Shown piece after piece: positions 7,661 to 39,297 of a stretch of 64,000 nucleotides of DNA. This DNA is from a virus (taxonomy: Duplodnaviria > Caudoviricetes). The stretch is from the IMG/VR virus record IMGVR_UViG_3300027707_000013, positions 6,610 to 70,609 of that record; one strand, written 5' to 3'. Within the stretch, counting starts at the first letter, position 1. Each line of letters opens with the position of its first letter. The notes under the pieces were generated by a model. The model searched no databases. It had not been told where the DNA came from and was given only the letters and a program-made list of their open reading frames with translations. The translations under genes and the position numbers were made by a program.

Positions 7661-7693
7661 ACAACAATAAATATACTGTATATATTTATTATC

Positions 7694-24010: not shown

Positions 24011-24655
24011 TTAAAGTCCCAATATGTCATCAACAATTTCTTGACTACTTAAAGTATTCCATGGTCTTGGGTGTTGATACGACCAAAATGTTTTCCAATA
24101 TCCATACCAAATAACTCCTTCTTTACGAGGGTCAATAGTTCTCCAATCAGTACTTTGTTTTGGAAATCTCCCAATGTTATAAGTTTTATAATAATCAATT
24201 CCTCCTGTTTCATAATAAGTTAGATACTTCTTATTAATTTTATCAAATTGGGAATGTAACACTACCTTACACCCATGAATACGTTGATACTCATCTACTC
24301 TTTGTGACCATAATTTAGCTTCGTTAATGTTATTGGTGACTAAGTTAAATAAGACCATCTTACCGTAATCATTATATCTGTGAGTGAATATTCTTTTCAT
24401 CCCATAGTCAGGAATGTACTTGTGAACAGAAATTTCAAAATCACAGTAAAACTCAATTCCACATTTAAACCTATCTTTCCAATCTATATCCCCTCCATTA
24501 GTTACTTTGTAAGATTCGATACTAACTGATTGGTCTTCACCCTTCTTATATTCACGTAATTCAACGTAATATAACGGGTCAGGACCTGTAATTTTTAGTT
24601 GCGGGTGCGGATTAAAATTCAGTGATAACGTTTCTTGGTTCAGGGTAATATACAT
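24011..24655 (-). CDS. hypothetical protein
   Basis: 214-aa ORF within the operon. Confidence 0.55.
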   Translation of the reverse strand: MYITLNQETLSLNFNPHPQLKITGPDPLYYVELREYKKGEDQSVSIESYKVTNGGDIDWKDRFKCGIEFYCDFEISVHKYIPDYGMKRIFTHRYNDYGKMVLFNLVTNNINEAKLWSQRVDEYQRIHGCKVVLHSQFDKINKKYLTYYETGGIDYYKTYNIGRFPKQSTDWRTIDPRKEGVIWYGYWKTFWSYQHPRPWNTLSSQEIVDDILGL

Positions 24656-26228
24656 AATCTTCTATTATTAGTTTATCTATAACCCCTCTACGTAAAGTAA
24701 TAAACGCTTGTGTAGGGTTTTCAATAATTGGCTCGTTATGACTGTTAAATGACGTATTCAATAAGACAGGAATTCCTGATATTTTATAGTATTCGTTTAA
24801 TATGGTCCAAAACTTTTTGTTTTTAGACTTCACAACTACTTGTGGTCTGGCACTTTTATCTGATTTTTGAATGACAGCAGGTATTTTATTAATCCATTCT
24901 TCTTTGGTGTTATAACATAATGTCATAAACTCTGCGGTATATTTTGATTTTGATGGAGTAAATAACTCATCAAAATGTTCTTCTAATACTATCGGAGCGA
25001 ATGGCATAGTATCATGTCTTTTCAATCTTTCGTTCAATAATTGATGGGTATCTATGTCTGTAGGTCTTACTAATATACTTCTGGCACCTAATGCTCTTGG
25101 GCCATGTTCGGACCCGTTTTGGAACCATCCAACAATTAAACCATTATTAATTTCTTCCGCAATTTTAGAAGGTATGTAAGGCTCCCTAACAAATCTAAAT
25201 CTCTTAGAAGTTTCAAATATGTCATCATTAGAATATCTCATTCCAAAAAACATATTATCAAACTTAAATGGTTTACTTATTTCTCCAAGTTCAACCGATT
25301 TGTATATACAGGAACCCAATGCAAGTCCCTCATCTCCCATAGGAGGATAAACATACATTTCATCTAACCATTCCAACTCATTAATCTTTTGGTTTAATTT
25401 AACATTGGCAAATAACCCGCCAGCAAAACATAAGTTCTTATAGTCGGGGTATAATTTGTGTAAGTCATCCAAAAATTTTAAAAACAAATCTTCGGTTAAT
25501 TTTTGTAAGTTAAATGAAAAAATCTCTCTTTGGTGTGGTGTGTCCAATAGCCCTTTGAGTTTCATCATGTCCACAACAAATTGAGTTTTACTGTTATTAG
25601 ATGATGGATAAAATCTTAAGTTTTCGTAGTTAATACAAGATTTTAGTTCATTGTAAATTCTTTCATTGTAATGACCATTAGCAGCCATACCCATAAGTTT
25701 ACCCTCATCCTTACACATCTTCCAAACTCCTTCGCCAAAAATATTATAACCCATAATTGAAGATGTACTGAATCCCCAAACGTGAGAAAGGCTACCATAT
25801 GAAGACATTGGAAAACTATGTAGGAGGGTCATTTTACCGTCATCACATAGAAATATTTTCATAACACTGGTATCACCTCCACCATCATAAGTGATTGTCA
25901 TGGTTTTACCCTCCATACCACTTGTGTAGTACGCTCCATAGGCGTGTGCGGTGTGATGACTTACAGTTTCGTAATGATTGTTTGTTACTTTTCGGGCAAA
26001 CCCATCAGGGGTTGGTAATGCAAACACATTATAGTCTACGTCCGTCATTTTTAACCCTGTGTATTTTTGAATTGAATCTAAAGATAAATCGGCGTTTACA
26101 TCGTAATTATCTCCAGCCTTTAATCGGGTTATTCGTTCTTCTTCGATTACGGATACCACTTTTCCGTCTACCATTAATGCAACGGTAGCACTGTGGGAAC
26201 CAGTAAAACATCCATAAATTGAACTCAT
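24612..26228 (-). CDS. carbamoyltransferase (NodU/CmcH family), copy 1
   Basis: EEERITRLK, HHTAHA, DGGGD, EGKLMGMA, GGLFANVKLN, GPRALGARS, RPQVV, LLNTSFN. Confidence 0.9.
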   Translation of the reverse strand: MSSIYGCFTGSHSATVALMVDGKVVSVIEEERITRLKAGDNYDVNADLSLDSIQKYTGLKMTDVDYNVFALPTPDGFARKVTNNHYETVSHHTAHAYGAYYTSGMEGKTMTITYDGGGDTSVMKIFLCDDGKMTLLHSFPMSSYGSLSHVWGFSTSSIMGYNIFGEGVWKMCKDEGKLMGMAANGHYNERIYNELKSCINYENLRFYPSSNNSKTQFVVDMMKLKGLLDTPHQREIFSFNLQKLTEDLFLKFLDDLHKLYPDYKNLCFAGGLFANVKLNQKINELEWLDEMYVYPPMGDEGLALGSCIYKSVELGEISKPFKFDNMFFGMRYSNDDIFETSKRFRFVREPYIPSKIAEEINNGLIVGWFQNGSEHGPRALGARSILVRPTDIDTHQLLNERLKRHDTMPFAPIVLEEHFDELFTPSKSKYTAEFMTLCYNTKEEWINKIPAVIQKSDKSARPQVVVKSKNKKFWTILNEYYKISGIPVLLNTSFNSHNEPIIENPTQAFITLRRGVIDKLIIEDYVYYPEPRNVITEF

Positions 26229-26229
26229 A

Positions 26230-27897
26230 TTAACCTCTTGTAATTACAATATTATTAAGTACTAAGATATCAAGATTGCAACTTAGAAAGGTTCCGATTG
26301 CGTCCATTGGGGTTTCAACAATAGGTTCGTGAGGTCCGTTAAAACTAGTGTTTAATAAAACAGGAACTCCTGTTTTTTCGTTAAATTTAGAAATTAACGA
26401 ATAAAATCTTGGATTATTTTCTACCGTAACAGATTGATGTCTTGATGAATTATCAATGTGGGTGATTGCAGGTACTTTATTTCTCCACTCTTCTTTAACG
26501 GTTGTTGTTACCAACATGTATGGGGAATAAACAGAGCTTTCAAACACATCTCCTTGATGTTCAAATAAAACCGCAGGGGCGAAAGGTCTATACCATTCTC
26601 TGCGTTTAATATCACTATTAATATGACCTGTCATCCAAGAGTTAATTGGTGAGGCAATAATTGAACGATTTCCTAACGCTCTTGGGCCAATTTCTGACCC
26701 TCCTTGGAACCATCCAATAACTCTATTTTGACTTAATGAGAAACTTACGTTTTCAATTAAATCATCAAAATTTTCATATTCGGTATAAACTAATGTAGGA
26801 TGTTCGTTAAGTGCTGCAAAAACTTCACCTTTAGAATACTCCCTACCAAAATAAGGACTTAACATTTCTGTTTCCTCAATATCTGTTAGTTTTTGGTATG
26901 CAAACCAAGCACAACCTAATGGTATTCCACTATCATCACTTGGAGGTAAAAAATAACAGTTTTCAAAAAGACCTGAGTTCAAAATTTTCTCATTTGAATT
27001 ACAGTTTAAGAAAGACCCACCAACAACACATATATTTTTAGAATCAGTAAATTTCTTGGTCATATTTGCCAACATTAAAGACGCTCTTTCTTGTTCTCGT
27101 TGGTAAATCCCAGCAACACAAGCTTTTGAATAGAAATCAGATTTCCAAGAAACTTTTGGGTATATGTTATTATTAGAAATGTAAATATCATCTTCCTTTT
27201 CCTCAACAAAAAACGGTGCCTCATTTACAATATCTTCATTAGCATAAGAAGCTAACCCCATTAATTTTCCTGCGGGCCATGTTTGAGTGTTTGGTTCGTA
27301 GATTAATTGAAGAGAGCCTGTTGAGTACATGGTACCCAACGAAACTCCTTCATCTGTGTTAATAGGAACGGGATATTTTATCCATTTTTTATAAAGTTCT
27401 TTATGTTCATTTTTATTAAAATGATATATAGAAATTCCTTCAGCCCAATCAGAATCAGTGTCTAAATTATATTCTTTTGGGTCATACCAAATGTGTGTTT
27501 TATTTTTGAAAGTAACGATACTTCCTGAGGCATCTGCAACAATTACCGCGGCGTCCTCTAACCCTGAGCTAAAGAATGCCGAATATGCGTGTGCCAAATG
27601 ATGAGGAATGAAATTTAATATTTCTACCTTAAGGTCATAATATTTTGAAAAAAATTGAGAACCTACAGTATCTTCAATTTCGGTTGTACTATACACATAG
27701 TAATCAATATCTCTATGTGTAATGCTAAGAGCATTTAAACAATAGTTAATTGATTCAAATGGTATTAGACCACCTTGATATGCCCCATCATGTTTTATTC
27801 GGGTAAGTCTTTCTTGGGTTATACCAACAACAACTTTACCGTTCTCAATGATGACAGCACCTTTGTCGTGTCCAACTGAAAATCCTAATACTCTCAT
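26230..27897 (-). CDS. carbamoyltransferase (NodU/CmcH family), copy 2
   Basis: HHLAHA, GKLMGLASY, PPSDDSG, GPRALGNRS, REWYRPFAP, LLNTSFNGPHEPIV. Confidence 0.9.
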   Translation of the reverse strand: MRVLGFSVGHDKGAVIIENGKVVVGITQERLTRIKHDGAYQGGLIPFESINYCLNALSITHRDIDYYVYSTTEIEDTVGSQFFSKYYDLKVEILNFIPHHLAHAYSAFFSSGLEDAAVIVADASGSIVTFKNKTHIWYDPKEYNLDTDSDWAEGISIYHFNKNEHKELYKKWIKYPVPINTDEGVSLGTMYSTGSLQLIYEPNTQTWPAGKLMGLASYANEDIVNEAPFFVEEKEDDIYISNNNIYPKVSWKSDFYSKACVAGIYQREQERASLMLANMTKKFTDSKNICVVGGSFLNCNSNEKILNSGLFENCYFLPPSDDSGIPLGCAWFAYQKLTDIEETEMLSPYFGREYSKGEVFAALNEHPTLVYTEYENFDDLIENVSFSLSQNRVIGWFQGGSEIGPRALGNRSIIASPINSWMTGHINSDIKRREWYRPFAPAVLFEHQGDVFESSVYSPYMLVTTTVKEEWRNKVPAITHIDNSSRHQSVTVENNPRFYSLISKFNEKTGVPVLLNTSFNGPHEPIVETPMDAIGTFLSCNLDILVLNNIVITRG

Positions 27898-28518: not shown

Positions 28519-29007
28519 CTAATAAACAAATGATTTTTGATAATCATTCCAAACCTTTTGAAGGTTTGCGTTATCATTAATCAATGTTGGTACATAAGGT
28601 TTTTGTTTCATAAACATCTTCGCCTCATCAGGTGTTCTATTTCCTTTCCTTAAGTTACATTTAAAACAAGACGTTACAAGGTTAGTCCATTCATTACCTC
28701 CACCTCTTGATTTAGGGGTAACGTGGTCTAACGTCAAATCTTTTTTTGACCCGCAATAAACACATTCGTGATTATCTCTCTTATATATTCTTGTCCTGTT
28801 CGCCCTTAACTTTCTAACCTGATATTTTATGTACTTTAATAATCGGATGATAACTGGGCGTACGTAGACATTGTATCCTGCAACAATAGGATTCTCGTCT
28901 GATTTTATAACTTCAGCCTTCCCTTTGTCCACCAATACAAAACCTCTCCTAACACTTGTTACATTAAGAGGGGTATAGTCGTAATTTAATACTAATACCG
29001 TACTCAT
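28519..29007 (-). CDS. HNH endonuclease
   Basis: RDNHECVYCG..TLDHVTPKSRGG..NLVTSCFKCNLRKG. Confidence 0.9.
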   Translation of the reverse strand: MSTVLVLNYDYTPLNVTSVRRGFVLVDKGKAEVIKSDENPIVAGYNVYVRPVIIRLLKYIKYQVRKLRANRTRIYKRDNHECVYCGSKKDLTLDHVTPKSRGGGNEWTNLVTSCFKCNLRKGNRTPDEAKMFMKQKPYVPTLINDNANLQKVWNDYQKSFVY

Positions 29008-29096
29008 TTTAATCCAATTTTTACAAACATAGTTTAATTAATTAATAAAAACAAAAAAGGGGACGAACTTCGACCCCTTTCTAATATACTAATGAT

Positions 29097-29201
29097 TTAG
29101 CAATATTTTATGGTTCGAGGTTTTCCACATCTCAAAGCTCCCGAGTTCTCATATTTTTGGTTAATTCCCAAAAGACACGTAATAAATTTGTCTATCATCA
29201 T
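29097..29201 (-). CDS. 34-aa small ORF followed by a terminator (possible leader peptide)
   Basis: MMIDKFITCLLGINQKYENSGALRCGKPRTIKYC; TATTTAT upstream; hairpin plus T-run at 29054-29080. Confidence 0.35.
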   Translation of the reverse strand: MMIDKFITCLLGINQKYENSGALRCGKPRTIKYC

Positions 29202-29277
29202 AATAATAAATATCTGTAAAAAGTTTCCAAAATCAAATTATTTCCATATCTTTGTTAAGAATTAAAAATATAAAAAA

Positions 29278-30051
29278 ATGACTATGAAACTAAAACAATT
29301 ATTTATTGCGATTTTCGCAACATCGGTATTATTCGTATCTTGTAGTAAAGATGACGTGTATGAACCAGTTAAACAAACTTCAATTGAATCAACTCAGGGA
29401 CAAGACCTAAGAACAATGTCTACATCACCGACTGTTTCAACGGTTGAACCAAAGGCTTACATTTTTGTTGAAAGTAGAATTAACAAAAGTCCAAGAAAAG
29501 TTGTGGATTATTTAAAAACAACTCAAAGACATTCACAATCAACAGGAACAAGATTTCTTTCTTTTTTTGTGAATGGTATTACAAGTTCTAATTTTAATGA
29601 TTTAATTAATTATTATAATATACCTTTTTGGAAAACTGACGCATCTTTAAAGGTTATCGAAACCGAAGTACCACAAGTAACTGGAGATGTGGATTCTTAT
29701 AATAACCCAAAATTAGCCTATAATTTTACAACTGTTAAAATACCTAAAGGTACGTTCAACGATTGGGGATGGGTTACGGTACTTATACCAACGTCAGCGA
29801 TGAATAATGACACAAAAAGACAAAATCAAATTGGTTATTATGCTAAAAACGGAAACAGAATAACCTCAAGCGGTAATAATACTCAAACAATTATTAACAC
29901 TAATAGACAACTATCGTCTTACGTAATCAATTATACAGGAAATGTAATCCCACAAGGTCAATATCGAGTATACACTACTCATGGCGGATTTGGAATGATG
30001 ATTGGTTTTAACTCAACAAATGACGTTTATTTTAGGGGAGCGTCTAATTAA
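29278..30051 (+). CDS. Bacteroidota-type lipoprotein
   Basis: VLFVSC lipobox; TATCTTTG upstream. Confidence 0.65.
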   Translation: MTMKLKQLFIAIFATSVLFVSCSKDDVYEPVKQTSIESTQGQDLRTMSTSPTVSTVEPKAYIFVESRINKSPRKVVDYLKTTQRHSQSTGTRFLSFFVNGITSSNFNDLINYYNIPFWKTDASLKVIETEVPQVTGDVDSYNNPKLAYNFTTVKIPKGTFNDWGWVTVLIPTSAMNNDTKRQNQIGYYAKNGNRITSSGNNTQTIINTNRQLSSYVINYTGNVIPQGQYRVYTTHGGFGMMIGFNSTNDVYFRGASN

Positions 30052-30107
30052 TTGAGATTTATTTAGAATTTATTTGATTTATAATATATTTATTGTAATA
30101 TTGCACT

Positions 30108-30206
30108 ATGAAAACTATGAACACAAATACAAATTTAGACACACCGACAACTCCTAATGGGGATGCAGGCACTATTTGCGTAAGTTCAGAAGCGAGTGGT
30201 TGGTAA
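30108..30206 (+). CDS. leader peptide 1 of tRNA cluster 1 (T/N/D/P/G/A-rich)
   Basis: MKTMNTNTNLDTPTTPNGDAGTICVSSEASGW*; 18 of codons 3-22 are T, N, D, P, G or A. Confidence 0.8.
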   Translation: MKTMNTNTNLDTPTTPNGDAGTICVSSEASGW

Positions 30207-30227
30207 CAATATTATAGCCAATTATCT

Positions 30228-30258
30228 AAACCCTGAACTAATACTTCAGGGTTTTTTT
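30228..30258 (+). terminator. attenuator terminator 1
   Basis: AAACCCTGAA-CTAATAC-TTCAGGGTTT plus T-run, 5 nt before tRNA-Pro. Confidence 0.85.
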
Positions 30259-30263
30259 ATGTA

Positions 30264-30337
30264 CGGGATGTAGCGTAGTCAGGTATCGCGCCACGTTTGG
30301 GACGTGGAGGCCGTTGGTTCGAATCCAGCTATCCCGA
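30264..30337 (+). tRNA. trnP: tRNA-Pro(TGG)
   Basis: Cloverleaf; anticodon arm CCACG-TTTGGGA-CGTGG. Confidence 0.95.
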
Positions 30338-30377
30338 CAAAAGTTTTCCTTATGGAAAAGTTTGATTATTATTATAT

Positions 30378-30449
30378 TGCTCTATCGTATAAGGGTTATT
30401 ACGGTTGACTGTTAATCAATTTATCCAAGTTCGAATCTTGGTGGAGCAG
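30378..30449 (+). tRNA. trnN: tRNA-Asn(GTT)
   Basis: GTTGA-CTGTTAA-TCAAT; T-loop TTCGAAT. Confidence 0.9.
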
Positions 30450-30529
30450 CTGTGGTGGGTGGAAAAATTCCAATGTTGTAGTATCGTGGATGGAGAAATC
30501 CTGAAGCATAAACAGACAAAAAGAAAGAA

Positions 30530-31018
30530 ATGATGTTAAAAACATTCTTATTGACTGGATTGTTATTGTTAGGAACAATAACAACAAAAGCACAAGAGAA
30601 GCAAGTACAGATTGATTCAAATACTAAAGAGAGTATTACAAAAGAAAATTTGTATGAGCAGATAATGAAGTACGGGATTAAGTTCCCTGATGTGGTATTC
30701 GCACAAGCGGTATTAGAGTCAGGTCAATTTACCTCCAAGTTGTTCAAATCGGCAAACAACTTATTTGGTATGAAAATACCAACAAAAAGGGAGTCATCGG
30801 CAAATGGTAAAACCAAAAGTGGATACTCAAGTTATGAAGATTGGAACTTTAGTGTATACGATTACTCTTTATGGCAAAATTTTATGTTAAGAAACAAAAG
30901 TGATTTAACAAAAAAAGAGTACCTTGCACTCCTTGGTAAGGTTTATGCAGAAGACAAAAGATATGTTAGTAGTTTAAAACGAGTAATCGGTGAACACCAA
31001 CATATTTTAACACAGTAA
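30530..31018 (+). CDS. glucosaminidase/FlgJ-like muramidase with signal peptide
   Basis: AQAVLESG, NNLFGMK, YAEDKRY. Confidence 0.85.
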   Translation: MMLKTFLLTGLLLLGTITTKAQEKQVQIDSNTKESITKENLYEQIMKYGIKFPDVVFAQAVLESGQFTSKLFKSANNLFGMKIPTKRESSANGKTKSGYSSYEDWNFSVYDYSLWQNFMLRNKSDLTKKEYLALLGKVYAEDKRYVSSLKRVIGEHQHILTQ

Positions 31019-31047
31019 AAAGTTTGGGGTGAAACTCCCCATAATTT

Positions 31048-31120
31048 GGTCCCGTGGTTGAATGGTTACAATTCCACCCTGTCACGGTGCGAGATACGGG
31101 TTCGAATCCCGTCGGGACCG
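31048..31120 (+). tRNA. trnD: tRNA-Asp(GTC)
   Basis: GGTCCCG/CGGGACC acceptor; loop CTGTCAC. Confidence 0.95.
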
Positions 31121-31177
31121 CAAAGAGGGTTATATGTGTAGTAACCTCAGGTGTGATATCCGCCACTACACTCTTAA

Positions 31178-31253
31178 GCGGTAGTAGCTCAGTTGGTAGA
31201 GCTCGTTCCTTCCAAGTACGAGGTCGCAGGTTCGAACCCTGTCTACCGCTCCA
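31178..31253 (+). tRNA. trnG: tRNA-Gly(TCC), CCA encoded
   Basis: Loop CTTCCAA; GCGGTAG/CTACCGC acceptor. Confidence 0.95.
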
Positions 31254-31300
31254 AGGGTTGTGGGAACCCAAGAGTATGTGATGAGCATACACCCACAAAT

Positions 31301-31376
31301 GCTTCCATAGCTCAGTTGGTAGAGCAGCTGATTTGTAATCAGCAGGTCGTTGGTTCGAGCCCGACTGGAAGCTCCA
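31301..31376 (+). tRNA. trnT: tRNA-Thr(TGT), CCA encoded
   Basis: GCTGA-TTTGTAA-TCAGC. Confidence 0.95.
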
Positions 31377-31381
31377 CTTTA

Positions 31382-31453
31382 GGGGATTTAGCTGAGTTGG
31401 TTTAGCACCGCCCTTGCACGGCGGGGACAAGAGTTCGAGTCTCTTATTCTCCA
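31382..31453 (+). tRNA. trnA: tRNA-Ala(TGC)
   Basis: G3.U70 pair; CCGCC-CTTGCAC-GGCGG. Confidence 0.95.
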
Positions 31454-31467
31454 CAAACAAATAAACG

Positions 31468-31821
31468 ATGGCACATCCAAACTTACATGCAAAATCATCC
31501 GCCAAAAAGTTTGGTGGGAAACCTGAGGACTACATTCATTTACACGAATGGTTAGATGAAACCAAAGGATGGTTTGGAGATTCACTTCATAGAATGTTTA
31601 GACATCATAGTGAAGGAATCTTTGAAATGGAAAAACGATTTGGTACTGAATTCAAAAACAGTGACGGGGATACCGTTTACACAAGATATATTGGAGAACA
31701 ACATATAAAAGAGGATTGTAATAACTACATTCCGTCAGCCAAAGAGTGGGTAAATAACATATCTACAAATCAACGACCTCAGTGGATGTTAAAAACAATA
31801 AAATTAGAATTCACTGACTGA
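31468..31821 (+). CDS. DUF6915-like protein
   Basis: MAHP..HAKSSAKKFGG.PEDY..HRMFRHHSEG..EQHIKED. Confidence 0.7.
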   Translation: MAHPNLHAKSSAKKFGGKPEDYIHLHEWLDETKGWFGDSLHRMFRHHSEGIFEMEKRFGTEFKNSDGDTVYTRYIGEQHIKEDCNNYIPSAKEWVNNISTNQRPQWMLKTIKLEFTD

Positions 31822-31832
31822 TATTTATAAGT

Positions 31833-32546
31833 ATGAAAGAACTTTTAACACCAGAAGAAAAACAATACTTAAAAAGAGTATCCAATTACTTAGGTTCAAT
31901 GGGGATGCAAGATGGTAATGTTGAAATTGACATAGATAATGGATGGACATTTAGTTATGATGATATCGATTGGAATTATATTACCCATTTCACTAATAAC
32001 TATAATGCGGATATTCCATCAGGATTAATACCAATACTTCAAAAAATAATGAAATATTGTGATGATGAGGGGTTAATTAAAGAACATGATGATAATATAA
32101 ATTATCAGAGATTAGAATATGATATTGATGTTGATGCTAAAAAAATTCAATTAAGTCATTGGTGGTCTTTTTATGATAGAGGTGAAGGTAGTTCAAGAGA
32201 ATATGATTCAGAAGAGGATATTGAAAGGTTTGATAGTTGGATGGAACTGTATTTTTCCGATGTCGAAATTCCCAATGATGGTGTCCTAACTGTAACCTAT
32301 AATGGGTCAGGTGATTCAGGTTATATGGAGAGTTCGTTTGAAGAAAATAATGACCAAGTTCCTGCAGGAATTGAGGATTGGTGTTACGGAGAATTATCAA
32401 GAAATTATGGTGGATGGGAAATTAATGAAGGGTCCGATGGTAACTTTATATTTGACTTCAACACAAAAATAGTTACATTAAATCATACAGAGAACATTGA
32501 AGAAAACGCAAGCGATACTTATTTTGAGCAGAGCTTCGCAAATTAA
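31833..32546 (+). CDS. DUF6878-like protein
   Basis: YNGSGDSG and GGWEINEGSDG motifs. Confidence 0.6.
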   Translation: MKELLTPEEKQYLKRVSNYLGSMGMQDGNVEIDIDNGWTFSYDDIDWNYITHFTNNYNADIPSGLIPILQKIMKYCDDEGLIKEHDDNINYQRLEYDIDVDAKKIQLSHWWSFYDRGEGSSREYDSEEDIERFDSWMELYFSDVEIPNDGVLTVTYNGSGDSGYMESSFEENNDQVPAGIEDWCYGELSRNYGGWEINEGSDGNFIFDFNTKIVTLNHTENIEENASDTYFEQSFAN

Positions 32547-32562
32547 GACATATTTATAAAAC

Positions 32563-32631
32563 ATGAGAACAACATTATTACATACGTTATTACTTGATAG
32601 ACAAGGTCTATTAAGAAGACTTATGCCGTAA
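32563..32631 (+). CDS. leader peptide 2 of tRNA cluster 2 (Leu/Arg-rich)
   Basis: MRTTLLHTLLLDRQGLLRRLMP*; 5 TTA, 2 CTT, 1 CTA and 4 AGA codons. Confidence 0.8.
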   Translation: MRTTLLHTLLLDRQGLLRRLMP

Positions 32632-32663
32632 TTTGTTCAGAGCCGTTCTATTTATAGATATTC

Positions 32664-32695
32664 AACCCTGAACCAAAAAAGTTCGGGGTTTTTTT
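32664..32695 (+). terminator. attenuator terminator 2
   Basis: AACCCTGAAC-CAAAAAA-GTTCGGGGTT plus T-run. Confidence 0.85.
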
Positions 32696-32735
32696 ATGAC
32701 TTTTTCAGAGATATTCACTATCTTTGTAAAATAAC

Positions 32736-32820
32736 GCCGAGGTGGTGTAATGGTAGCCACGAGGGACTTAAAATCCCTTGGTCAGTAACGACCGTGAGGG
32801 TTCGAGTCCCTCCCTCGGTA
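32736..32820 (+). tRNA. trnL: tRNA-Leu(TAA)
   Basis: AGGGA-CTTAAAA-TCCCT; long variable arm. Confidence 0.95.
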
Positions 32821-32827
32821 CAAAATT

Positions 32828-32901
32828 GGTTTGGTAGCTCAGCTGGATAGAGCAACGCACTTCTAATGCGTAGGTCATAGGTTCGAATCCTATCCGAATC
32901 A
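32828..32901 (+). tRNA. trnR: tRNA-Arg(TCT)
   Basis: ACGCA-CTTCTAA-TGCGT. Confidence 0.95.
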
Positions 32902-32903
32902 CA

Positions 32904-32997
32904 ATCATTATCGTAGCTCAGTGAGATACGGCGCAAGATACACACTTAAACAACGCGGGAGAGGCGCCTTTCCCGATGTGGCTGAAGCGATAATGAT
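32904..32997 (+). ncRNA. unassigned structured RNA between tRNAs
   Basis: 10-bp closing stem ATCATTATCG/CGATAATGAT with internal CGGGAGAG/CTTTCCCG hairpin. Confidence 0.45.
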
Positions 32998-33001
32998 ATT
33001 T

Positions 33002-33082
33002 ACCCCGATGGCGTAATGGTAGCCGCGCAAGTCTTAGGAACTTGTGACTTCGGTCGTATCGGTTCGAGTCCGATTTGGGGTA
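33002..33082 (+). tRNA. trnL: tRNA-Leu(TAG)
   Basis: CAAGT-CTTAGGA-ACTTG; long variable arm. Confidence 0.95.
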
Positions 33083-33096
33083 CAAGAAAGTAAATT

Positions 33097-33816
33097 ATGT
33101 ACGTACAAAATCCTTTAGTTAAAACTAGTCAACCGAATTTATTTCATTTGGCTCCAATTCCCGTATTCATGAAAGTTTTCGGTGACGATGAATTCCATGA
33201 TGAGGTATACACGTTTGGGTTTGAGAATCTAACTCCCCAACAAAAGTTAATGGGTCAGGAACTTCCTGAACAATACGACATTAACAGACAATCAAATTAT
33301 TCTGTGAATTACGATAAGAGAGAAATGTGGGTGGAACCTACAGAGTATAATCCTATTGGTAGTCGTTTTTGGACACCGCCTAACGACTTTCTTGACATCA
33401 ACAATGAGAACGTTAAGAAGATTAGACAAAGGGTTGAGAGTGGTTATATGGAGTTATTAGACATGTTAGGGTTCCAACACAATAGAAAACCTGATATTAC
33501 CGAGAGCTGGATTCAATATTATAACCCAACTGAAGGTAGAGGTCATAATGCTCACAATCACTGTAGATGGCAACCAAATGAAGAAACAATGTTAAACTTC
33601 TCAGGAGGTTATTACTTATCTGACGGTGACCCTATTGCCGACCATCCTTATAGTGGAGTTTTTACATTCCATATTAGAGGGATGTCTCACTTTATCAGAC
33701 CTAAAAAAGGTATGTTAATCATTTGGCCGTATGATATCGTACATTCGGTTAAACCATTTTACGGAAAAACACATAGATGTGTTATTAATTTCAATATTCA
33801 AGACGGAAAAAAATGA
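33097..33816 (+). CDS. 2OG-Fe(II) oxygenase-like protein (TIGR02466-like)
   Basis: ESWIQYY, HNAHNH, FSGGYYL, KGMLIIWP..HSVKP, RCVINFN. Confidence 0.75.
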   Translation: MYVQNPLVKTSQPNLFHLAPIPVFMKVFGDDEFHDEVYTFGFENLTPQQKLMGQELPEQYDINRQSNYSVNYDKREMWVEPTEYNPIGSRFWTPPNDFLDINNENVKKIRQRVESGYMELLDMLGFQHNRKPDITESWIQYYNPTEGRGHNAHNHCRWQPNEETMLNFSGGYYLSDGDPIADHPYSGVFTFHIRGMSHFIRPKKGMLIIWPYDIVHSVKPFYGKTHRCVINFNIQDGKK

Positions 33817-33867
33817 TTATCTATATTATATATATAATAAATAATATGTTTAAATTAACAAGTAAAG

Positions 33868-34455
33868 ATGCTATATAAAACTTTTGTTATTTCATTAAAA
33901 AGAAGACCCGATAGAAGAGCAAAAATTAAAGATTTGTTTATAAAAAACAATCTAAAGTTTTCTTTTTATGACGCAATTGATGGACGTGATTTAATTGTTA
34001 CGGATGAGATTGAAGAATTATTTTTAAATAATGAGTTTGAAGATTGGGGTATAATAAAAGAATGTATCTATGGTAATACCTTAACTCATCTAAAGCTATT
34101 GAAAGAATGTTCTGAGCAGAATTTACCGTATTTTATTTTTGAGGATGATGTTAAAATAAAGAAAGATATTAATTTCACGTTTGAGAGTATTGTTGAAAAA
34201 CAATTAGATGCTTTTTGGTTAATAGATTTAGAACCTTCGTCGTTAGCATACGTTGTTTGGCCTGAAGGGGCTAAAAAAATACATGATTGGATAATGAATG
34301 TTGGAAAGGCAGATAAAGGAATGGATTGGAAATTATTAGAAATAAAAAACACTAATCTCCTAAATTCTGATAAGATATGGGACGAATACTTCTATCAAGT
34401 ACCTGGAGAAGATTCCGATATTGCCCCTAAAGGATATAAAAAAATAATAATATGA
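33868..34455 (+). CDS. glycosyltransferase family 25
   Basis: VISLKRRPDRR, FYDAIDG, THLKLL, IFEDDV. Confidence 0.85.
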   Translation: MLYKTFVISLKRRPDRRAKIKDLFIKNNLKFSFYDAIDGRDLIVTDEIEELFLNNEFEDWGIIKECIYGNTLTHLKLLKECSEQNLPYFIFEDDVKIKKDINFTFESIVEKQLDAFWLIDLEPSSLAYVVWPEGAKKIHDWIMNVGKADKGMDWKLLEIKNTNLLNSDKIWDEYFYQVPGEDSDIAPKGYKKIII

Positions 34456-35030
34456 AACAAATAGATTTAGATATTTTTGTATTTCCAAAAATCATGACTG
34501 ATGAACTTATTGAAAGACTAATGTCGGTTAGAAATAAGAGCGGTTTTGATGGAAGATTAGATTTACATATTGAGGATAAAAACACATTTTATATTTTTGA
34601 TAATTTTTGGTTTTCTGAAATTGAATCCAAATATTTGGGACATTATTTTAGTACGTATGATGTTGAAAAAGGAATAGGATTAAATTCAAGTGAGGAGACT
34701 ATAAAACAATTAAGTAAATTTGTTGAAACAAAATGGAGAGATTTATTCTTACTTCATTATACACCTAATAGTTTAATTAACGGTGAAAAAGATATTCATT
34801 GGGATTTTAGTGGGTTAAGTATGGTTGGATGTTTAACTGATGATTATGAAGGAGGTAAACTAATTTTTCCTAGACAGAATGTTACTTACAGATTAGAAAA
34901 AGGGGATGTTATCGTGTTTCCAGGAGGTTTAACTCACCCACACTATGTGGAACCCGTAACTAAAGGTTTTAGGGATGTAATTGTTGGTCAAAGTATGACA
35001 TTACCTCAAGACCATAAAATCGATTATTAA
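34452..35030 (+). CDS. 2OG-Fe(II) oxygenase (lysyl/prolyl hydroxylase-like)
   Basis: IHWD, DYEGGKL, FPG..THPH.VEPVTKG.R. Confidence 0.8.
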   Translation: MKQIDLDIFVFPKIMTDELIERLMSVRNKSGFDGRLDLHIEDKNTFYIFDNFWFSEIESKYLGHYFSTYDVEKGIGLNSSEETIKQLSKFVETKWRDLFLLHYTPNSLINGEKDIHWDFSGLSMVGCLTDDYEGGKLIFPRQNVTYRLEKGDVIVFPGGLTHPHYVEPVTKGFRDVIVGQSMTLPQDHKIDY

Positions 35031-35036
35031 AAATAA

Positions 35037-35067
35037 TTTGACAACTCAGAGATTTTTACTATCTTTG
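35037..35067 (+). promoter_or_regulatory. Bacteroidota-type promoter of leader 3
   Basis: TTTG-N19-TATCTTTG. Confidence 0.7.
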
Positions 35068-35085
35068 AACTATATATTAGAAATA

Positions 35086-35187
35086 ATGAAAACTACAATA
35101 AAACATATGGTCTTTAGTACACAGCAAAAATCGATTTGTTGGTATGAGCGTATGCGCGATTGTAGTTCGGATATAATTTTTGAGTAA
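35086..35187 (+). CDS. leader peptide 3 of tRNA cluster 3
   Basis: MKTTIKHMVFSTQQKSICWYERMRDCSSDIIFE*; contains all 13 amino acids of cluster 3 and no L, P, G, A or N. Confidence 0.8.
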   Translation: MKTTIKHMVFSTQQKSICWYERMRDCSSDIIFE

Positions 35188-35222
35188 TTTTTTAAAATAA
35201 AAATAAACCAAATTTTTTATAT

Positions 35223-35255
35223 ACCCCGAACTCGTAAAAAGGTTCGGGGTTTTTT
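35223..35255 (+). terminator. attenuator terminator 3
   Basis: ACCCCGAACT-CGTAAAAA-GGTTCGGGGT plus T-run. Confidence 0.85.
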
Positions 35256-35271
35256 GTTTTAAAATTGTTAG

Positions 35272-35283
35272 GTTCTTTGAAAT
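35272..35283 (+). promoter_or_regulatory. boxA-like antitermination element
   Basis: GTTCTTTGAAAT; the same TTCTTTGAAAT lies just upstream of the tmRNA. Confidence 0.5.
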
Positions 35284-35313
35284 ATTGGTTGTAATTTTGT
35301 ACTTGATTTAAAC

Positions 35314-35387
35314 GTCGCGTTGGACAAATTGGTTAAGTCGTCATCCTTTCACGATGAAGATTACGGGTTCGAACCCCGTACGCGATA
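35314..35387 (+). tRNA. trnE: tRNA-Glu(TTC)
   Basis: TCATC-CTTTCAC-GATGA. Confidence 0.95.
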
Positions 35388-35397
35388 CATAATTTAC

Positions 35398-35469
35398 AGT
35401 TCCTTAGCTCAGTGGAAGAGTCCTTGCCTTACATGCAAGTAGTCGTAGGTTCGAATCCTACAGGAACTA
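35398..35469 (+). tRNA. trnV: tRNA-Val(TAC)
   Basis: CTTGC-CTTACAT-GCAAG. Confidence 0.95.
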
Positions 35470-35474
35470 CATTA

Positions 35475-35547
35475 GGTGACGTAGCTCAGTTGGTAGAGCA
35501 CTTGCCTGAAGAGCAAGGTGTCGTCAGTTCGATTCTGACCGTTACCA
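35475..35547 (+). tRNA. trnF: tRNA-Phe(GAA)
   Basis: CTTGC-CTGAAGA-GCAAG. Confidence 0.95.
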
Positions 35548-35622
35548 CGGAGTCCCGAATTAACGGGAAACCCCCACTCCCATATGGCAGCCAGTCCGTT
35601 AACCTGGTGAAGTGGGGTATTT

Positions 35623-35696
35623 GACCTCTTAGCTCAGTTGGCTAGAGCACTTCACTTTTAATGAAGGAGTCCCGAGTTCGAGTCTCGGAGGGGTCA
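35623..35696 (+). tRNA. trnK: tRNA-Lys(TTT)
   Basis: CTTCA-CTTTTAA-TGAAG. Confidence 0.95.
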
Positions 35697-35711
35697 CAAA
35701 AAACATATATT

Positions 35712-35945
35712 ATGAAAGCAATACTTGAATTTAATTTACCTGAAGATAATCAGGAGTTTGAATTGGCAACAAAGGGTCTTAAATTTTGGTCGGTCTTATG
35801 GGAATTAGACCAATCTTTAAGGACTAAAACAAAATATGCTCCCGACAATTTACCTCAAGATAAGTACGACGCTTATCAAGAAATAAGGGATGAACTTCGT
35901 GAGTTAATGTCGGATAATAATGTTAATTTTGACATGGTTAAATAA
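35712..35945 (+). CDS. conserved-looking phage hypothetical protein
   Basis: MKAILEFNLPED; start moved out of tRNA-Lys. Confidence 0.65.
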   Translation: MKAILEFNLPEDNQEFELATKGLKFWSVLWELDQSLRTKTKYAPDNLPQDKYDAYQEIRDELRELMSDNNVNFDMVK

Positions 35946-35956
35946 AAAACAATAAG

Positions 35957-36580
35957 ATGATAGATAACATAAACATAATAAAACCGTTATTAAACTTCGA
36001 GGAGAAGGGAGACTTCTATATGTTGTATGTCTTCAAACGTAAGAAAGACCAACCTGAAGGTGAGAGAGATAACCATCAGTCGGTTAGAACTATCAAAACA
36101 TATTGCATTGAATCAATTGACCATTTGGAAAGGAGATATGATGAGGTAAAACAACTATGTGAGATGTTCAAGGCAAGAGCTTACATTCATGTTCAGAAAC
36201 AAAATCACAGAGATGTGTCTTTGGATATGTTGGCGAGTTTAGCTGAGAGAATTAAGAATGGAGTTCAAAACCAAAAGGGGTTATTTGATTCGGTTGTTGG
36301 ACAGATTAAGACTCAAGAGAAAAGATGGATTATCGATATTGATAACGTATCAATGGATGGATTCAATCATGACCCATACCAAGTATCGTTGAGAGAATAT
36401 ATAAACGAGTTACAGAAAGAGGCAGGAAAAGACCAAGGAATGACTTTTATTAAGACAAGAAGTGGATTCCATATCATAACTCAACCTTTTAATGTGATGA
36501 AATTTAAAGAAAGATATCCCGAGGTTGATATCCAAAAAAAGAACCCAACATTATTATATTATCCCAATAATTTGGGTTAA
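35957..36580 (+). CDS. hypothetical protein, possible AEP/primase-like fold
   Basis: WIIDID..TRSGFH resembles the DxD and SGxH motifs; the fold assignment is weak. Confidence 0.55.
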   Translation: MIDNINIIKPLLNFEEKGDFYMLYVFKRKKDQPEGERDNHQSVRTIKTYCIESIDHLERRYDEVKQLCEMFKARAYIHVQKQNHRDVSLDMLASLAERIKNGVQNQKGLFDSVVGQIKTQEKRWIIDIDNVSMDGFNHDPYQVSLREYINELQKEAGKDQGMTFIKTRSGFHIITQPFNVMKFKERYPEVDIQKKNPTLLYYPNNLG

Positions 36581-36595
36581 ATTTGTAAAACAAAG

Positions 36596-36667
36596 GGTCG
36601 GTTGGCCGAGTGGTTTAGGCGGTAGTCTGCAAAACTATCTACACAGGTTCGATTCCTGTACCGACCT
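36596..36667 (+). tRNA. trnC: tRNA-Cys(GCA)
   Basis: GTAGT-CTGCAAA-ACTAT. Confidence 0.95.
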
Positions 36668-36668
36668 C

Positions 36669-36788
36669 ATGACAAAGAAAGAAATTAACAAAATGGTTAA
36701 AGCCATTAGAATGACAACAAAAAAAGCTTGTAAGAATAAGAAATCTGCTCGTAAGTTTCTTATTAAGGCGGGAATTGTAAAAAAATAA
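36669..36788 (+). CDS. 39-aa Lys-rich peptide
   Basis: MTKKEINKMVKAIRMTTKKACKNKKSARKFLIKAGIVKK*, filling the Cys-Trp spacer. Confidence 0.5.
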   Translation: MTKKEINKMVKAIRMTTKKACKNKKSARKFLIKAGIVKK

Positions 36789-36789
36789 T

Positions 36790-36862
36790 ACGTGTGTAGC
36801 TCAGACGGTAGAGCAGTAGTCTCCAAAACTATGTGTCAGAGGTTCGAATCCTTTCATGCGTG
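36790..36862 (+). tRNA. trnW: tRNA-Trp(CCA)
   Basis: GTAGT-CTCCAAA-ACTAT. Confidence 0.93.
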
Positions 36863-36865
36863 CTA

Positions 36866-37127
36866 AAGGTTGATTGGAAAGCCTTACACCTTCTCTAAGG
36901 AGTTGGAATGTAAGCGAGGGGACTGAATGAAGTCGAAGAAATGCCAATCATAAAAGTAGATGTCCACGCACCCATCTTCTACTTTCCTTAAAATATTAGG
37001 TTGATTGGGGAATGATGATGTAAATACCTGGTAGTGGTTGGAATAAGACATCGTCGGAGTTTAAATTACCATTAGTAATGCCAATCATAAAAGGAGATGT
37101 CCACTGAACCATCTTCTCCTTTCCTTA
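36866..37127 (+). ncRNA. two tandem copies of an unassigned structured RNA motif
   Basis: Both copies read AGGTTGATTGG..GTTGGAAT..ATGCCAATCATAAAAG(T/G)AGATGTCCAC..CCATCTTCT(A/C)CTTTCCTT, with a compensatory T-A/G-C change. Confidence 0.65.
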
Positions 37128-37131
37128 TTTT

Positions 37132-37213
37132 GGGAGTATCGCATAGCGGCAATTGCAGAAGACTGTAAATCTTCCCTCTTTAGAGTTCGTAGGTTCGAGT
37201 CCTACTCCTCCCA
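37132..37213 (+). tRNA. trnY: tRNA-Tyr(GTA)
   Basis: GAAGA-CTGTAAA-TCTTC; long variable arm. Confidence 0.95.
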
Positions 37214-37219
37214 CATTTT

Positions 37220-37293
37220 GGACTTGTAGCTCAGTTGGTTAGAGCGCTTCACTCATAATGAATAGGTCCCTGGTTCGAGCCCAGGCTGGTCCA
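37220..37293 (+). tRNA. tRNA with CAT anticodon (probably Ile2, possibly Met)
   Basis: Loop CTCATAA; C4-G69 pair as in Ile2 tRNAs. Confidence 0.85.
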
Positions 37294-37299
37294 CAATAT

Positions 37300-37370
37300 T
37301 GCCCGATGGTGTAGCGGTAGCACAAATGTTTTTGGTGCATTTAGGGTTGGTTCGAATCCAGCTCGGGTAA
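37300..37370 (+). tRNA. trnQ: tRNA-Gln(TTG)
   Basis: AATGT-TTTTGGT-GCATT; TGCCCGA/TCGGGTA acceptor. Confidence 0.92.
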
Positions 37371-37379
37371 CTAAATAAA

Positions 37380-37451
37380 ATGAATATGTGGTTTTTAATT
37401 GTTTGGATTGTATTGATGATTATTGTCAAATGGGACAATGACCGTGATTAG
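37380..37451 (+). CDS. 23-aa hydrophobic peptide
   Basis: MNMWFLIVWIVLMIIVKWDNDRD*. Confidence 0.35.
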   Translation: MNMWFLIVWIVLMIIVKWDNDRD

Positions 37452-37523
37452 GGTTTTATGGTGTAACGGATAGCACACGAAACTACGGATTTCGGAGTTT
37501 AGGTTCGAATCCTAATAGAACCT
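37452..37523 (+). tRNA. trnR: tRNA-Arg(ACG)
   Basis: CGAAA-CTACGGA-TTTCG. Confidence 0.92.
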
Positions 37524-37529
37524 CTAAAC

Positions 37530-37599
37530 TGCGTGGCTTAGAGGAAAAGAACTATCTCTCATAAGGATGGTCAATTGGGTTCGAAACCCAAACACGCAA
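37530..37599 (+). tRNA. atypical tRNA with CAT anticodon (Met-like), weak D-arm
   Basis: TGCGTG/CACGCA acceptor, loop CTCATAA, T-arm TTGGG-TTCGAAA-CCCAA. Confidence 0.6.
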
Positions 37600-37604
37600 C
37601 ATAT

Positions 37605-37678
37605 GGTGGCTATAGCTCAGTTGGCAGAGCGCTTGGTTGTGGTCCAAGTTGTCACGGGTTCGATTCCCGTTAGTCACC
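37605..37678 (+). tRNA. trnH: tRNA-His(GTG)
   Basis: G-1 and C73; CTTGG-TTGTGGT-CCAAG. Confidence 0.95.
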
Positions 37679-37812
37679 CAAAGTGTTTACAACGGACAAG
37701 GCTTAGGCAAGTGAGTTGAGAATGAGTAGTAGGAGATTTAATCGTTTGGACTACAGAAAGTTTGATACAATAGATTGGTGGGATGCGAGTGGTTGACCAA
37801 AACACTTATTAC

Positions 37813-37898
37813 GGAAGGATGGCAGAGTTGGTCTATCGCGCTTGACTTGAAATCAAGTGTACTGCAAGGTACCGTGGGTTCGAATCCTACTCCTTCCG
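37813..37898 (+). tRNA. trnS: tRNA-Ser(TGA)
   Basis: CTTGA-CTTGAAA-TCAAG; long variable arm. Confidence 0.95.
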
Positions 37899-37930
37899 CA
37901 ATTTTTTACCCATATTGACTATTTATTAGT

Positions 37931-38380
37931 ATGGAAAAAGTAACATTAACAAAAGAGCAACTATTCAAGGTAATGCATTTGAATGAGCAGGAAAATAAGC
38001 CTGAAACTAAAAGTAACTCAGGATTTAAGAATATGGTGTCAACACTATTACATTCTCAAACTCAAGTACATATTTTTCATTTACAGACTAAGTCATATTC
38101 TGAACATAAAGCATTACAAAAGTACTATGAAGGTATTGACGCATTAGTGGACGGTATTATCGAAAGTTATCAAGGTAAGTACGATGTTATTAAAAATTAT
38201 GATTCAGTTAAAACTGAGGACTACAAGAGTTCTGAGCAAGTAATTAATTATTTCAAATCATTAGATACTATGATTGAGAAAGCAAGAAAAGGAGTTAAAG
38301 AATCGTATATTCAAAACCAAATTGATACGGTTCAGGAATTAATATTTTCCACAGTGTATAAGTTAAGATTCTTAAAATAA
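37931..38380 (+). CDS. ferritin/Dps-like protein (DUF5856-like) with head-type propeptide
   Basis: QVHIFHLQTKSYSEHKALQKYYEGI..D.IIESYQG; TATTTAT at 37920. Confidence 0.7.
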   Translation: MEKVTLTKEQLFKVMHLNEQENKPETKSNSGFKNMVSTLLHSQTQVHIFHLQTKSYSEHKALQKYYEGIDALVDGIIESYQGKYDVIKNYDSVKTEDYKSSEQVINYFKSLDTMIEKARKGVKESYIQNQIDTVQELIFSTVYKLRFLK

Positions 38381-38474
38381 TATACTGTTGAAATCTAATA
38401 TTGAATTCCTCTAATTAAAAGTTAGGGGAATTTTTTTTTATGGTATGATTTTAATATATTTGTACCAACAACAA

Positions 38475-38548
38475 TGGAATATAACTCAGTTGGTTAGAGT
38501 GTCATCCTGATACGGTGAAAGTCGATGGTTCGAGTCCATCTATTCCAA
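38475..38548 (+). tRNA. trnI: tRNA-Ile(GAT)
   Basis: TCATC-CTGATAC-GGTGA. Confidence 0.93.
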
Positions 38549-38550
38549 CA

Positions 38551-38886
38551 ATGGAAAATGAAATTAAAAAGAAAACTGGCAATAGAGCCAAGTTTAAGAA
38601 AATTGTAAAAGAGTATAAAGAAGCGACCAATAAAGAGATTTGGGAAGGAGTTAGAGATAATTTTACTTTCGGGTTTATTGGAGCGACTATTGTTGTGTTT
38701 ATAGCGACAAGAGCTGATATTGCGGTATTATTAGGTTATTTAGCTTATTACTTTTTTGTAGGTAAGATAGTTAATCGACCAAAATACGTAACCGATTTGG
38801 GAAAATTAATTGTGTTTCCAGTACCATCAGCATTAGGTGCATTTATAGGATATAAATTATCCTATTACCTTTTACAGTTATTGTAA
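38551..38886 (+). CDS. membrane protein
   Basis: Three hydrophobic segments; start moved out of tRNA-Ile. Confidence 0.6.
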   Translation: MENEIKKKTGNRAKFKKIVKEYKEATNKEIWEGVRDNFTFGFIGATIVVFIATRADIAVLLGYLAYYFFVGKIVNRPKYVTDLGKLIVFPVPSALGAFIGYKLSYYLLQLL

Positions 38887-38892
38887 TGTTTT

Positions 38893-38978
38893 GGAAAGTT
38901 ACCCAAGTTGGTGAAGGGGCTTGTTTGCTAAACAAGTAGGGTGTAAAAGCCGCGAGGGTTCGAGCCCCTCACTTTCCG
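38893..38978 (+). tRNA. trnS: tRNA-Ser(GCT)
   Basis: CTTGT-TTGCTAA-ACAAG; long variable arm. Confidence 0.95.
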
Positions 38979-39066
38979 CAGAAAAAAAATATTTGAAAAG
39001 TTGACATAATCGATTAACCTTCTTATATTTATAATCTATTAATAAATAAAACAAATAAAAAAAAAC

Positions 39067-39252
39067 ATGAAAAAAGTAGTATTAGCAATCTTTACAATCG
39101 TAGCGTTAGCCTCTTGTGGTAACGGAAAATCAACTGAAGTTAAATCTGACTCAACTGTAGTAGCGGTAGATTCAGTTAAAGTAGATTCAGCAGCAGTGGC
39201 TGTAGATTCTGTAAAAGCTGAAGCGCCTGCGTCAGTAGAAGAAAAAAAATAA
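39067..39252 (+). CDS. small lipoprotein with D(S/T)(A/V/T) repeats
   Basis: IVALASC lipobox; own TTGACA-N17-TATATT promoter and terminator. Confidence 0.75.
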   Translation: MKKVVLAIFTIVALASCGNGKSTEVKSDSTVVAVDSVKVDSAAVAVDSVKAEAPASVEEKK

Positions 39253-39297
39253 TTACATTCTATTGGAAAAACAAAACCCACCTATTGGTGGGTTTTT

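Follow-up and report, generated by a model that had tools for sequence, protein, structure and literature searches.

A predicted leader-peptide attenuator ahead of the first tRNA block of a large freshwater phage

In a large uncultured freshwater phage, the first block of tRNA genes is preceded by a short unit that is likely to be a ribosome-mediated leader-peptide attenuator, placed before a tRNA operon and sensing the supply of the very tRNAs that it controls. This unit (unit 1) combines a small leader ORF, composed for the most part of codons for the amino acids of the block, with a predicted switchable stop located 5 bases before tRNA-Pro, and the tRNAs are thus probably made when the leader codons are read slowly. 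A preliminary description of this DNA had proposed such an attenuator, and our in silico analysis supports this proposal through the tRNA-matched codons, the predicted terminator, a covarying antiterminator and the location of the sensor codons upstream of the switch.

The phage, its tRNA genes and its relatives

The window, i.e., the whole stretch of 64,000 nucleotides analyzed here, belongs to an IMG/VR virus record of 70.6 kb. CheckV gives this record a completeness of 23%, which points to a phage genome of roughly 300 kb, and the related full-length genomes measure 317–326 kb. When positions 29000–33000 were compared by megablast with the deposited phage genomes, the matches were tRNA-sized only, hence there is no cultured close relative among these genomes. 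The window carries 23 tRNA genes (called by ARAGORN and Rfam), which all have + orientation, extend from 30264 to 38979 and are interspersed with protein genes (among them those for a glucosaminidase, DUF6915, DUF6878, 2OG-Fe(II) oxygenases, a GT25 glycosyltransferase and DUF5856). Together, these tRNAs constitute a near-minimal complete decoding set. Those of the four-codon boxes all have U34 (UGG, UCC, UGU, UGC, UAC, UGA and UAG), and the rest of the set consists of one Arg tRNA with the anticodon ACG, of tRNAs with G34 or U34 in the split boxes and of a single CAU. The leaders described below define three tRNA blocks that partition all 20 amino acids.

Between blocks 2 and 3 (33097–35030) lie a 2OG-Fe(II) oxygenase-like gene, the GT25 glycosyltransferase gene and a second oxygenase-like gene. 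The Pfam matches of both oxygenase-like genes are under the curated cut-off, and the oxygenase/GT25 pairing resembles the hydroxylase/glycosyltransferase pairs that modify proteins. Elsewhere in the window, on the − strand (24612–27897), two adjacent large ORFs encode 538 and 555 aa; by its Pfam domains, Carbam_trans_N and Carbam_trans_C, the product of the second is a carbamoyltransferase.

The conserved DUF6915 gene was used to find related loci, which gave 294 loci, of which 80 were fetched. The tRNA content and order vary widely among these 80 loci. Leader–terminator units were collected in them by an automatic, rule-based search, which asked for a hairpin with a T-run at most 260 nt from a tRNA and then, as leader, for the longest ATG ORF whose end lies at most 75 nt upstream; it returned 135 units, 86 of them distinct.

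Organization of unit 1

Unit 1 and the tRNA block that follows it are composed of these elements:

30085–30093, + strand: TATATTTAT promoter-like box, 14 nt upstream of the leader ATG
30108–30206, + strand: leader ORF 1, 32 codons and a TAA stop, with an ATG start and a synonymous substitution pattern
30114–30173, + strand: sensor codons 3–22, of which 18 of 20 specify T, N, D, P, G or A
30183–30189, + strand: region 2, AGTTCAG, predicted 5′ strand of the antiterminator, complementary to 30233–30239
30195–30227, + strand: inner hairpin (by folding), enclosed by the antiterminator helix and spanning the stop codon
30228–30258, + strand: predicted intrinsic terminator, with the hairpin at 30228–30254 and the T-run at 30252–30258
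30264–30338 and 30378–30450, + strand: tRNA-Pro(UGG) and tRNA-Asn(GUU) (ARAGORN, Rfam)
30530–31018, + strand: glucosaminidase-domain gene inside tRNA block 1 (Pfam PF01832, E 2e-17)
31048–31454, + strand: tRNA-Asp(GUC), Gly(UCC), Thr(UGU) and Ala(UGC), the rest of block 1 (ARAGORN, Rfam)

The TATTTAT that had been noticed ahead of the leader ORF is indeed present, at 30087–30093, inside the TATATTTAT box. The hairpin comprises 10 pairs (−12.3 kcal/mol), is completed by 7 T and is located 22 nt past the leader stop codon; its 5′ arm, CTGAACT (30233–30239), doubles as the predicted 3′ strand of the antiterminator. The end of the T-run (30258) and the start of tRNA-Pro (30264, by both ARAGORN and Rfam) fall where the preliminary description had placed them, and the five bases ATGTA separate one from the other. 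Across the relatives, the terminator hairpin is paired in 93% of the cells of the alignment. Moreover, hairpin/T-run terminator sites are enriched in the tRNA cluster (19 vs. 7.9 expected). Judging from its sequence, the hairpin with its T-run is a predicted intrinsic terminator, at which transcription would end.

The leader codons match the downstream tRNA block

A recount of codons 3–22 gives the 18 of 20 block codons that had been reported earlier, the two exceptions being Met4 and Leu10; Lys2 is the further residue of the N-terminal part that lies outside the block set. The six amino acids had been equated with those of the downstream tRNAs, and the equation is exact, since Pro, Asn, Asp, Gly, Thr and Ala are those of the tRNAs found up to the next unit. 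Over the whole peptide, 20 of the 31 residues belong to the block set, for a background of 0.339 (binomial 4.8e-4). We ranked all the ATG ORFs of 18–45 residues found in the six frames of the whole window, i.e., 308 small ORFs, and leader 1 came first for the block-1 amino acids. Under strict wobble rules, 14 of the 31 leader-1 codons are read by the block tRNAs, so U34 must read four-codon boxes for the match to extend further.

Two sister units are found further downstream in the cluster:

32563–32726, + strand: unit 2, with a 22-codon Leu/Arg-rich leader (32563–32631), region 2 GTTCAG (32634–32639), a predicted terminator (32664–32690) and a TATCTTTG box (32719–32726), followed by tRNA-Leu(UAA), Arg(UCU) and Leu(UAG)
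35060–35299, + strand: unit 3, with a TATCTTTG box (35060–35067), a 33-codon leader (35086–35187), region 2 AGTTCGG (35164–35170), a predicted terminator (35223–35250) and a TAATTTTG box (35292–35299), followed by the remaining 14 tRNAs

Leaders 2 and 3 rank 1st and 3rd of the 308 ORFs for the amino acids of their own block, and leader 3 holds all 13 amino acids of its 14 downstream tRNAs. Measured against the amino-acid usage of the window, the binomial probabilities for leaders 2 and 3 are 7e-7 and 1.4e-3, and the joint rank probability of the three leaders is about 1e-7. The Arg codons differ between the leaders: AGA is used in leader 2, which precedes tRNA-Arg(UCU), and CGT/CGC in leader 3, which precedes tRNA-Arg(ACG).

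Another junction of the cluster is located at 38403–38462, where a strong hairpin, a 9-T run and a TATATTTG box precede tRNA-Ile without any leader ORF. The DUF5856 gene (149 aa) ends 22 nt upstream of this hairpin. The junction is of the terminator–promoter kind, without a sensor.

Leaders and tRNA blocks covary among relatives

In the close relatives, the flanking 257-aa protein is 40–55% identical and the stretch from the leader through the terminator to tRNA-Pro is nearly identical. Within codons 1–22, these relatives show at least nine synonymous sites for one non-synonymous change, and this pattern argues that leader ORF 1 is constrained as codons. The sole non-synonymous change is GCA to GGG, and it occurs in lineages devoid of tRNA-Ala.

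Beyond the close relatives, the codon content of the leaders follows the tRNA content of the blocks. By block permutation, which ignores shared ancestry, the L1-type leaders (20 unique) show 394 matches, for 368.6 ± 5.0 expected (0/20000), and the L3-type leaders 433, for 398.8 ± 6.9 expected, a value that no permutation attained either. In locus L078, both tRNA-Thr and the Thr codon are absent; in L116 and L119, tRNA-Pro is absent and so is Pro from the leader; in L111 and L113, a tRNA-Tyr has been added and the leader has three Tyr codons. L101 lacks tRNA-Asp and Asp, and with Leu and Arg tRNAs in its block it has gained Leu and Arg codons. Across the related loci, the amino acid of a tRNA that is present is almost never absent from the leader. 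The match is nonetheless imperfect, since Ala, Gly or Arg codons are kept in L103, L075 and L117 though the tRNA is gone.

Several related loci have an organization of their own. In L003 (13400–13572 and 15250–15350) and also in L008, leader 2 is missing, and tRNA-Leu is preceded by a terminator and a promoter box only; their leader 3 has Leu-Leu (CTA TTA) in place of the Arg-Asp of the window, and their tRNA-Met has been relocated upstream of the 257-aa gene. In L015, which belongs to a 12-tRNA lineage, leader 3 (around 15385–15475) retains TGTAGTTCGGAT in another frame (Pro-Val-Val-Arg-Met-Ser). It is devoid of Lys, Phe and Trp codons, matching the tRNAs absent from the block, yet it has four Asn codons for a block without tRNA-Asn. 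L011 (around 15880–15965), as well as L022 and L023, carries an insertion (about 80 nt) that is richer in GC and seems to be structured, located between the promoter box that follows terminator 3 and tRNA-Glu; an Rfam search with the L011 insertion gave no family match.

A conserved putative antiterminator and the modelled position of the ribosome

The AGTTCAG of region 2 is located in the 3′ third of the leader ORF and is complementary to the 5′ arm of the terminator. Aligning 20 distinct units shows that the six pairs at the core of the antiterminator are formed in 99.2% of the cells, and pairing falls to 54% or 40% when the partner is slid by one column as a control. Compensatory changes are found in both directions, from G:C to A:U and from A:U to G:C, in two units each. 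Across the lineages, the GTTCAG motif is read in three frames (AGT TCA GAA, GTT CAG and AAG TTC AGA), which argues that it is kept as RNA and not as peptide. In the unit-3 family, region 2 also tracks the variants of the terminator arm, e.g., TGTAGTC with GACTACA. The antiterminator domain (30181–30241) folds at −15.9 kcal/mol (z −3.8; 0/200 shuffles as good), to be compared with the value given above for the terminator. The inner hairpin is paired in 70% of the cells across relatives, which argues weakly for its conservation.

To model the geometry of the unit, we cut the transcript before the 3′ arm of the terminator and masked the ribosome footprint. With the modelled ribosome at codons 1–21, the antiterminator forms; from codon 22 through the stop codon, it is abolished. 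Family-wide, 82% of the residues of the sensor part match the block, compared with 31% in the switch part (Fisher 3e-35). According to this model, the layout of unit 1 is that of classical attenuators. Equilibrium folding of the transcript with the full terminator and a masked ribosome gives a dominant terminator wherever the ribosome is placed (P never lower than 0.70, the value at codons 14–15). Since equilibrium always favors the terminator, the switch would require kinetic trapping by a helix of only 6–7 bp, and it is the kinetic-style model, on the cut transcript, that supports the geometry.

In classical attenuators, a 1:2 stem can act as anti-antiterminator, so that transcription ends when the leader goes untranslated, although this stem is not universal among the known ones. 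Folding reveals such a stem in units 2 and 3. In unit 1, by contrast, folding gives no 1:2 stem, and the antiterminator forms without any ribosome; the one candidate, a 5-bp TGAAC/GTTCA complement, is not conserved and was rejected. An untranslated transcript of unit 1 is thus predicted to read through by default.

Promoters and transcripts

TATATTTAT occurs 9 times in the window, for 3.2 ± 1.7 expected, mostly 5–35 nt upstream of gene starts. Its sites are found at 7667–7689, 20566, 30085, 39024, 51571, 54058 and 63742, with a back-to-back pair (7667/7681) in the divergent intergenic region 7660–7694. Among the relatives, nearly all the L1-type units have kept TATTTAT 4–20 nt ahead of the ATG. 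On these sequence grounds, TATATTTAT may represent a class of phage promoters that differs from the TAnnTTTG boxes, which we take to be the −7 type box of Bacteroidota and which stand directly before several tRNA blocks of the window.

The preliminary description had stated that the space between the terminator of unit 1 and tRNA-Pro leaves no room for a promoter. This stands for the window, where the gap after the hairpin measures 9 nt and holds no TAnnTTTG box, but not for the units in general. Indeed, a TAnnTTTG box lies between the terminator and the first tRNA in 18 of the 29 unit-1-type units (with gaps of 20–100 nt), in 6/6 unit-2 and in 33/33 unit-3 units. Where the box follows the terminator, i.e., in most related units and in units 2 and 3 of the window, read-through would only be an addition. 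For block 1 of the window, devoid of such a box, dependence on read-through is plausible. The hairpins of the promoter-less units are weaker than the others (−12.7 vs. −14.8 kcal/mol).

A 920-nt contig from an RNA library joins the upstream gene to positions 30068–30217 and ends about 23 letters later, near the hairpin. The proximity of this end to the hairpin is no more than a hint of termination. The contig shows the leader joined to the upstream gene, hence transcripts may also come from elsewhere than TATATTTAT. Other freshwater metatranscriptome contigs link tRNA-Asn with the glucosaminidase gene and with tRNA-Asp through Thr, and none of the assembled RNA contigs listed spans 30217–30264. 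These contigs, which come without transcript ends and may include DNA carry-over, fit one operon.

Proposed mechanism

We infer that the leader ORF is translated, that transcription terminates at the hairpin and that a switch couples the two processes. Transcripts would start at or upstream of TATATTTAT and carry the 32-codon ORF, in which codons 3–22 would serve as a checklist for the decoding of Thr, Asn, Asp, Pro, Gly and Ala. Slow decoding of any of the listed codons would make the ribosome lag in the sensor part, leaving AGUUCAG (30183–30189) free to pair with the emerging CUGAACU (30233–30239). This pairing would block the terminator hairpin, and the polymerase would run the 5 nt into tRNA-Pro and through the block. 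On the contrary, fast decoding would bring the ribosome to codons 22–33 or to the stop codon, where it would cover AGUUCAG; the hairpin and the U-run would then form and transcription would stop at about 30258. In this way, the tRNA products would feed back on their own synthesis.

Alternative explanations

The leader could sense the tRNA supply and have another output than termination, namely the processing or the stability of the tRNA precursor, for instance by deciding whether RNase P or RNase E reaches the hairpin, 10 nt from the 5′ end of the tRNA, or, in relatives, through the activity of a promoter overlapping the hairpin. Indeed, the codon/tRNA match and its covariation demand a link with the tRNAs and no particular output; the hairpin adjoins the 5′ end of the tRNA, the promoter box begins inside the T-run in most relatives, and the terminator is never displaced at equilibrium. 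On the other hand, a GC-rich hairpin with a run of 7 U is a canonical intrinsic terminator, of a kind that is enriched in the cluster, and antitermination predicts a strand such as region 2, which is conserved, covaries and has precisely the 5′ arm of this terminator as its complement. We consider an output at the level of processing rather unlikely.

Lower in probability still is an ordinary small gene, or a functional peptide, followed by a leaky terminator, with constitutive read-through and a composition match devoid of regulatory meaning. Such a gene would suit the high conservation of the N-terminal peptide, the RNA-library contig that links the upstream gene to the leader and the fact that few terminators are completely efficient. 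However, this explanation accounts neither for three leaders that match their own blocks (ranks 1, 1 and 3 of 308) nor for leader codons that are gained and lost along with the tRNAs, and it leaves aside the confinement of the matching to the codons upstream of region 2 and the conservation of GTTCAG at the nucleotide level in three frames. As for an ORF arising by chance across an AT-rich spacer, an AT-rich genome does contain many small ORFs, as the 308 ranked here show, but the joint rank probability, the pattern of synonymous substitutions and the conservation of the ORF where the upstream protein is only 40–55% identical all speak against it. With the ORF ranks, the block permutation and the synonymous pattern, chance is effectively refuted, and we give it hardly any weight. 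The attenuator that senses the supply of its own tRNAs is therefore the reading that we retain.

Implications for phage tRNA genes

The reason why phages have tRNA genes has been a matter of debate for decades, and to our knowledge hardly anything is known of how these tRNAs are regulated. Codon compensation and escape from tRNA-targeting defences are among the rival hypotheses put forward in one source (PMC10264068). A leader that lists the amino acids of the downstream tRNAs would imply that the phage measures decoding capacity directly, that tRNA synthesis is adjusted block by block and that tRNA genes are grouped into blocks for the sake of regulation. Classical attenuation, a control of amino-acid biosynthesis, would thus extend to decoding itself, by means of a compact sensor of about 150 nt. 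Moreover, such leaders could be used to predict where the operons of phage tRNA clusters begin and end, and the promoter-less unit 1 of the window is the simplest construct for an experiment.

More tentatively, and we would not wager on it, the three leaders could act together as a circuit that induces, on demand, a full set of phage tRNAs sufficient by itself, and each block would be turned on only when the decoding of its codons fails. They would then be both a sensor of, and a counter-measure to, a tRNA-targeting defence. If so, the triggers could be, e.g., host tRNAs cleaved by anticodon nucleases or lost during host shut-off, and the tRNA product, by closing a negative feedback, would make this the first ribosome-read autoregulated tRNA operon.

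Comparison with known attenuators

We searched for known systems in the cluster and in the literature. A search for a T-box with Rfam over 29000–39500 gave no match at E values up to 1, and the Rfam models of the Thr, His, Leu, Phe and Trp leaders gave none on 30085–30260, 32555–32700 and 35060–35260; sub-threshold matches to the Phe and Leu leaders fell only on a bidirectional terminator at around 39233–39322. The literature search, which covered sources other than subscription journals, returned no account of tRNA genes controlled by a leader peptide.

Multivalent leader attenuators are known in enterobacteria, i.e., thrL (Thr/Ile) and ilvL (Leu/Val/Ile), besides trpL, hisL, leuL and pheL. 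Like thrL and ilvL, the phage units would consist of a short ORF rich in regulatory codons with an intrinsic terminator directly behind, of an antiterminator strand covered by the ribosome near the stop codon and free under an upstream stall, and of several amino acids sensed by one leader. Unlike them, the phage units would regulate tRNA genes and not biosynthetic enzymes, so that the sensed quantity would include the product itself. Their leaders list six and up to thirteen amino acids, instead of one to three, with codons that are mostly interspersed and not arranged in long runs, and unit 1 is devoid of a 1:2 stem. The setting also differs from that of the enterobacterial leaders, since it is a phage of a Bacteroidota-like host, and there is no sequence similarity.

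Attenuation applied to the translation machinery is found with the pheM leader of pheST, which encodes the Phe-tRNA synthetase; however, pheM senses one amino acid, controls a synthetase and not tRNAs, and is chromosomal. In T-box riboswitches, as predicted for unit 1, the decision between terminator and antiterminator depends on the status of tRNA, but T-boxes bind the uncharged tRNA directly (through the specifier loop and the T-box sequence) and without translation, whereas the sensor of unit 1 is predicted to be a translated ORF. By analogy, the closest known systems would hence be the thr and ilv leaders for the logic of the unit and the pheST leader for its target.
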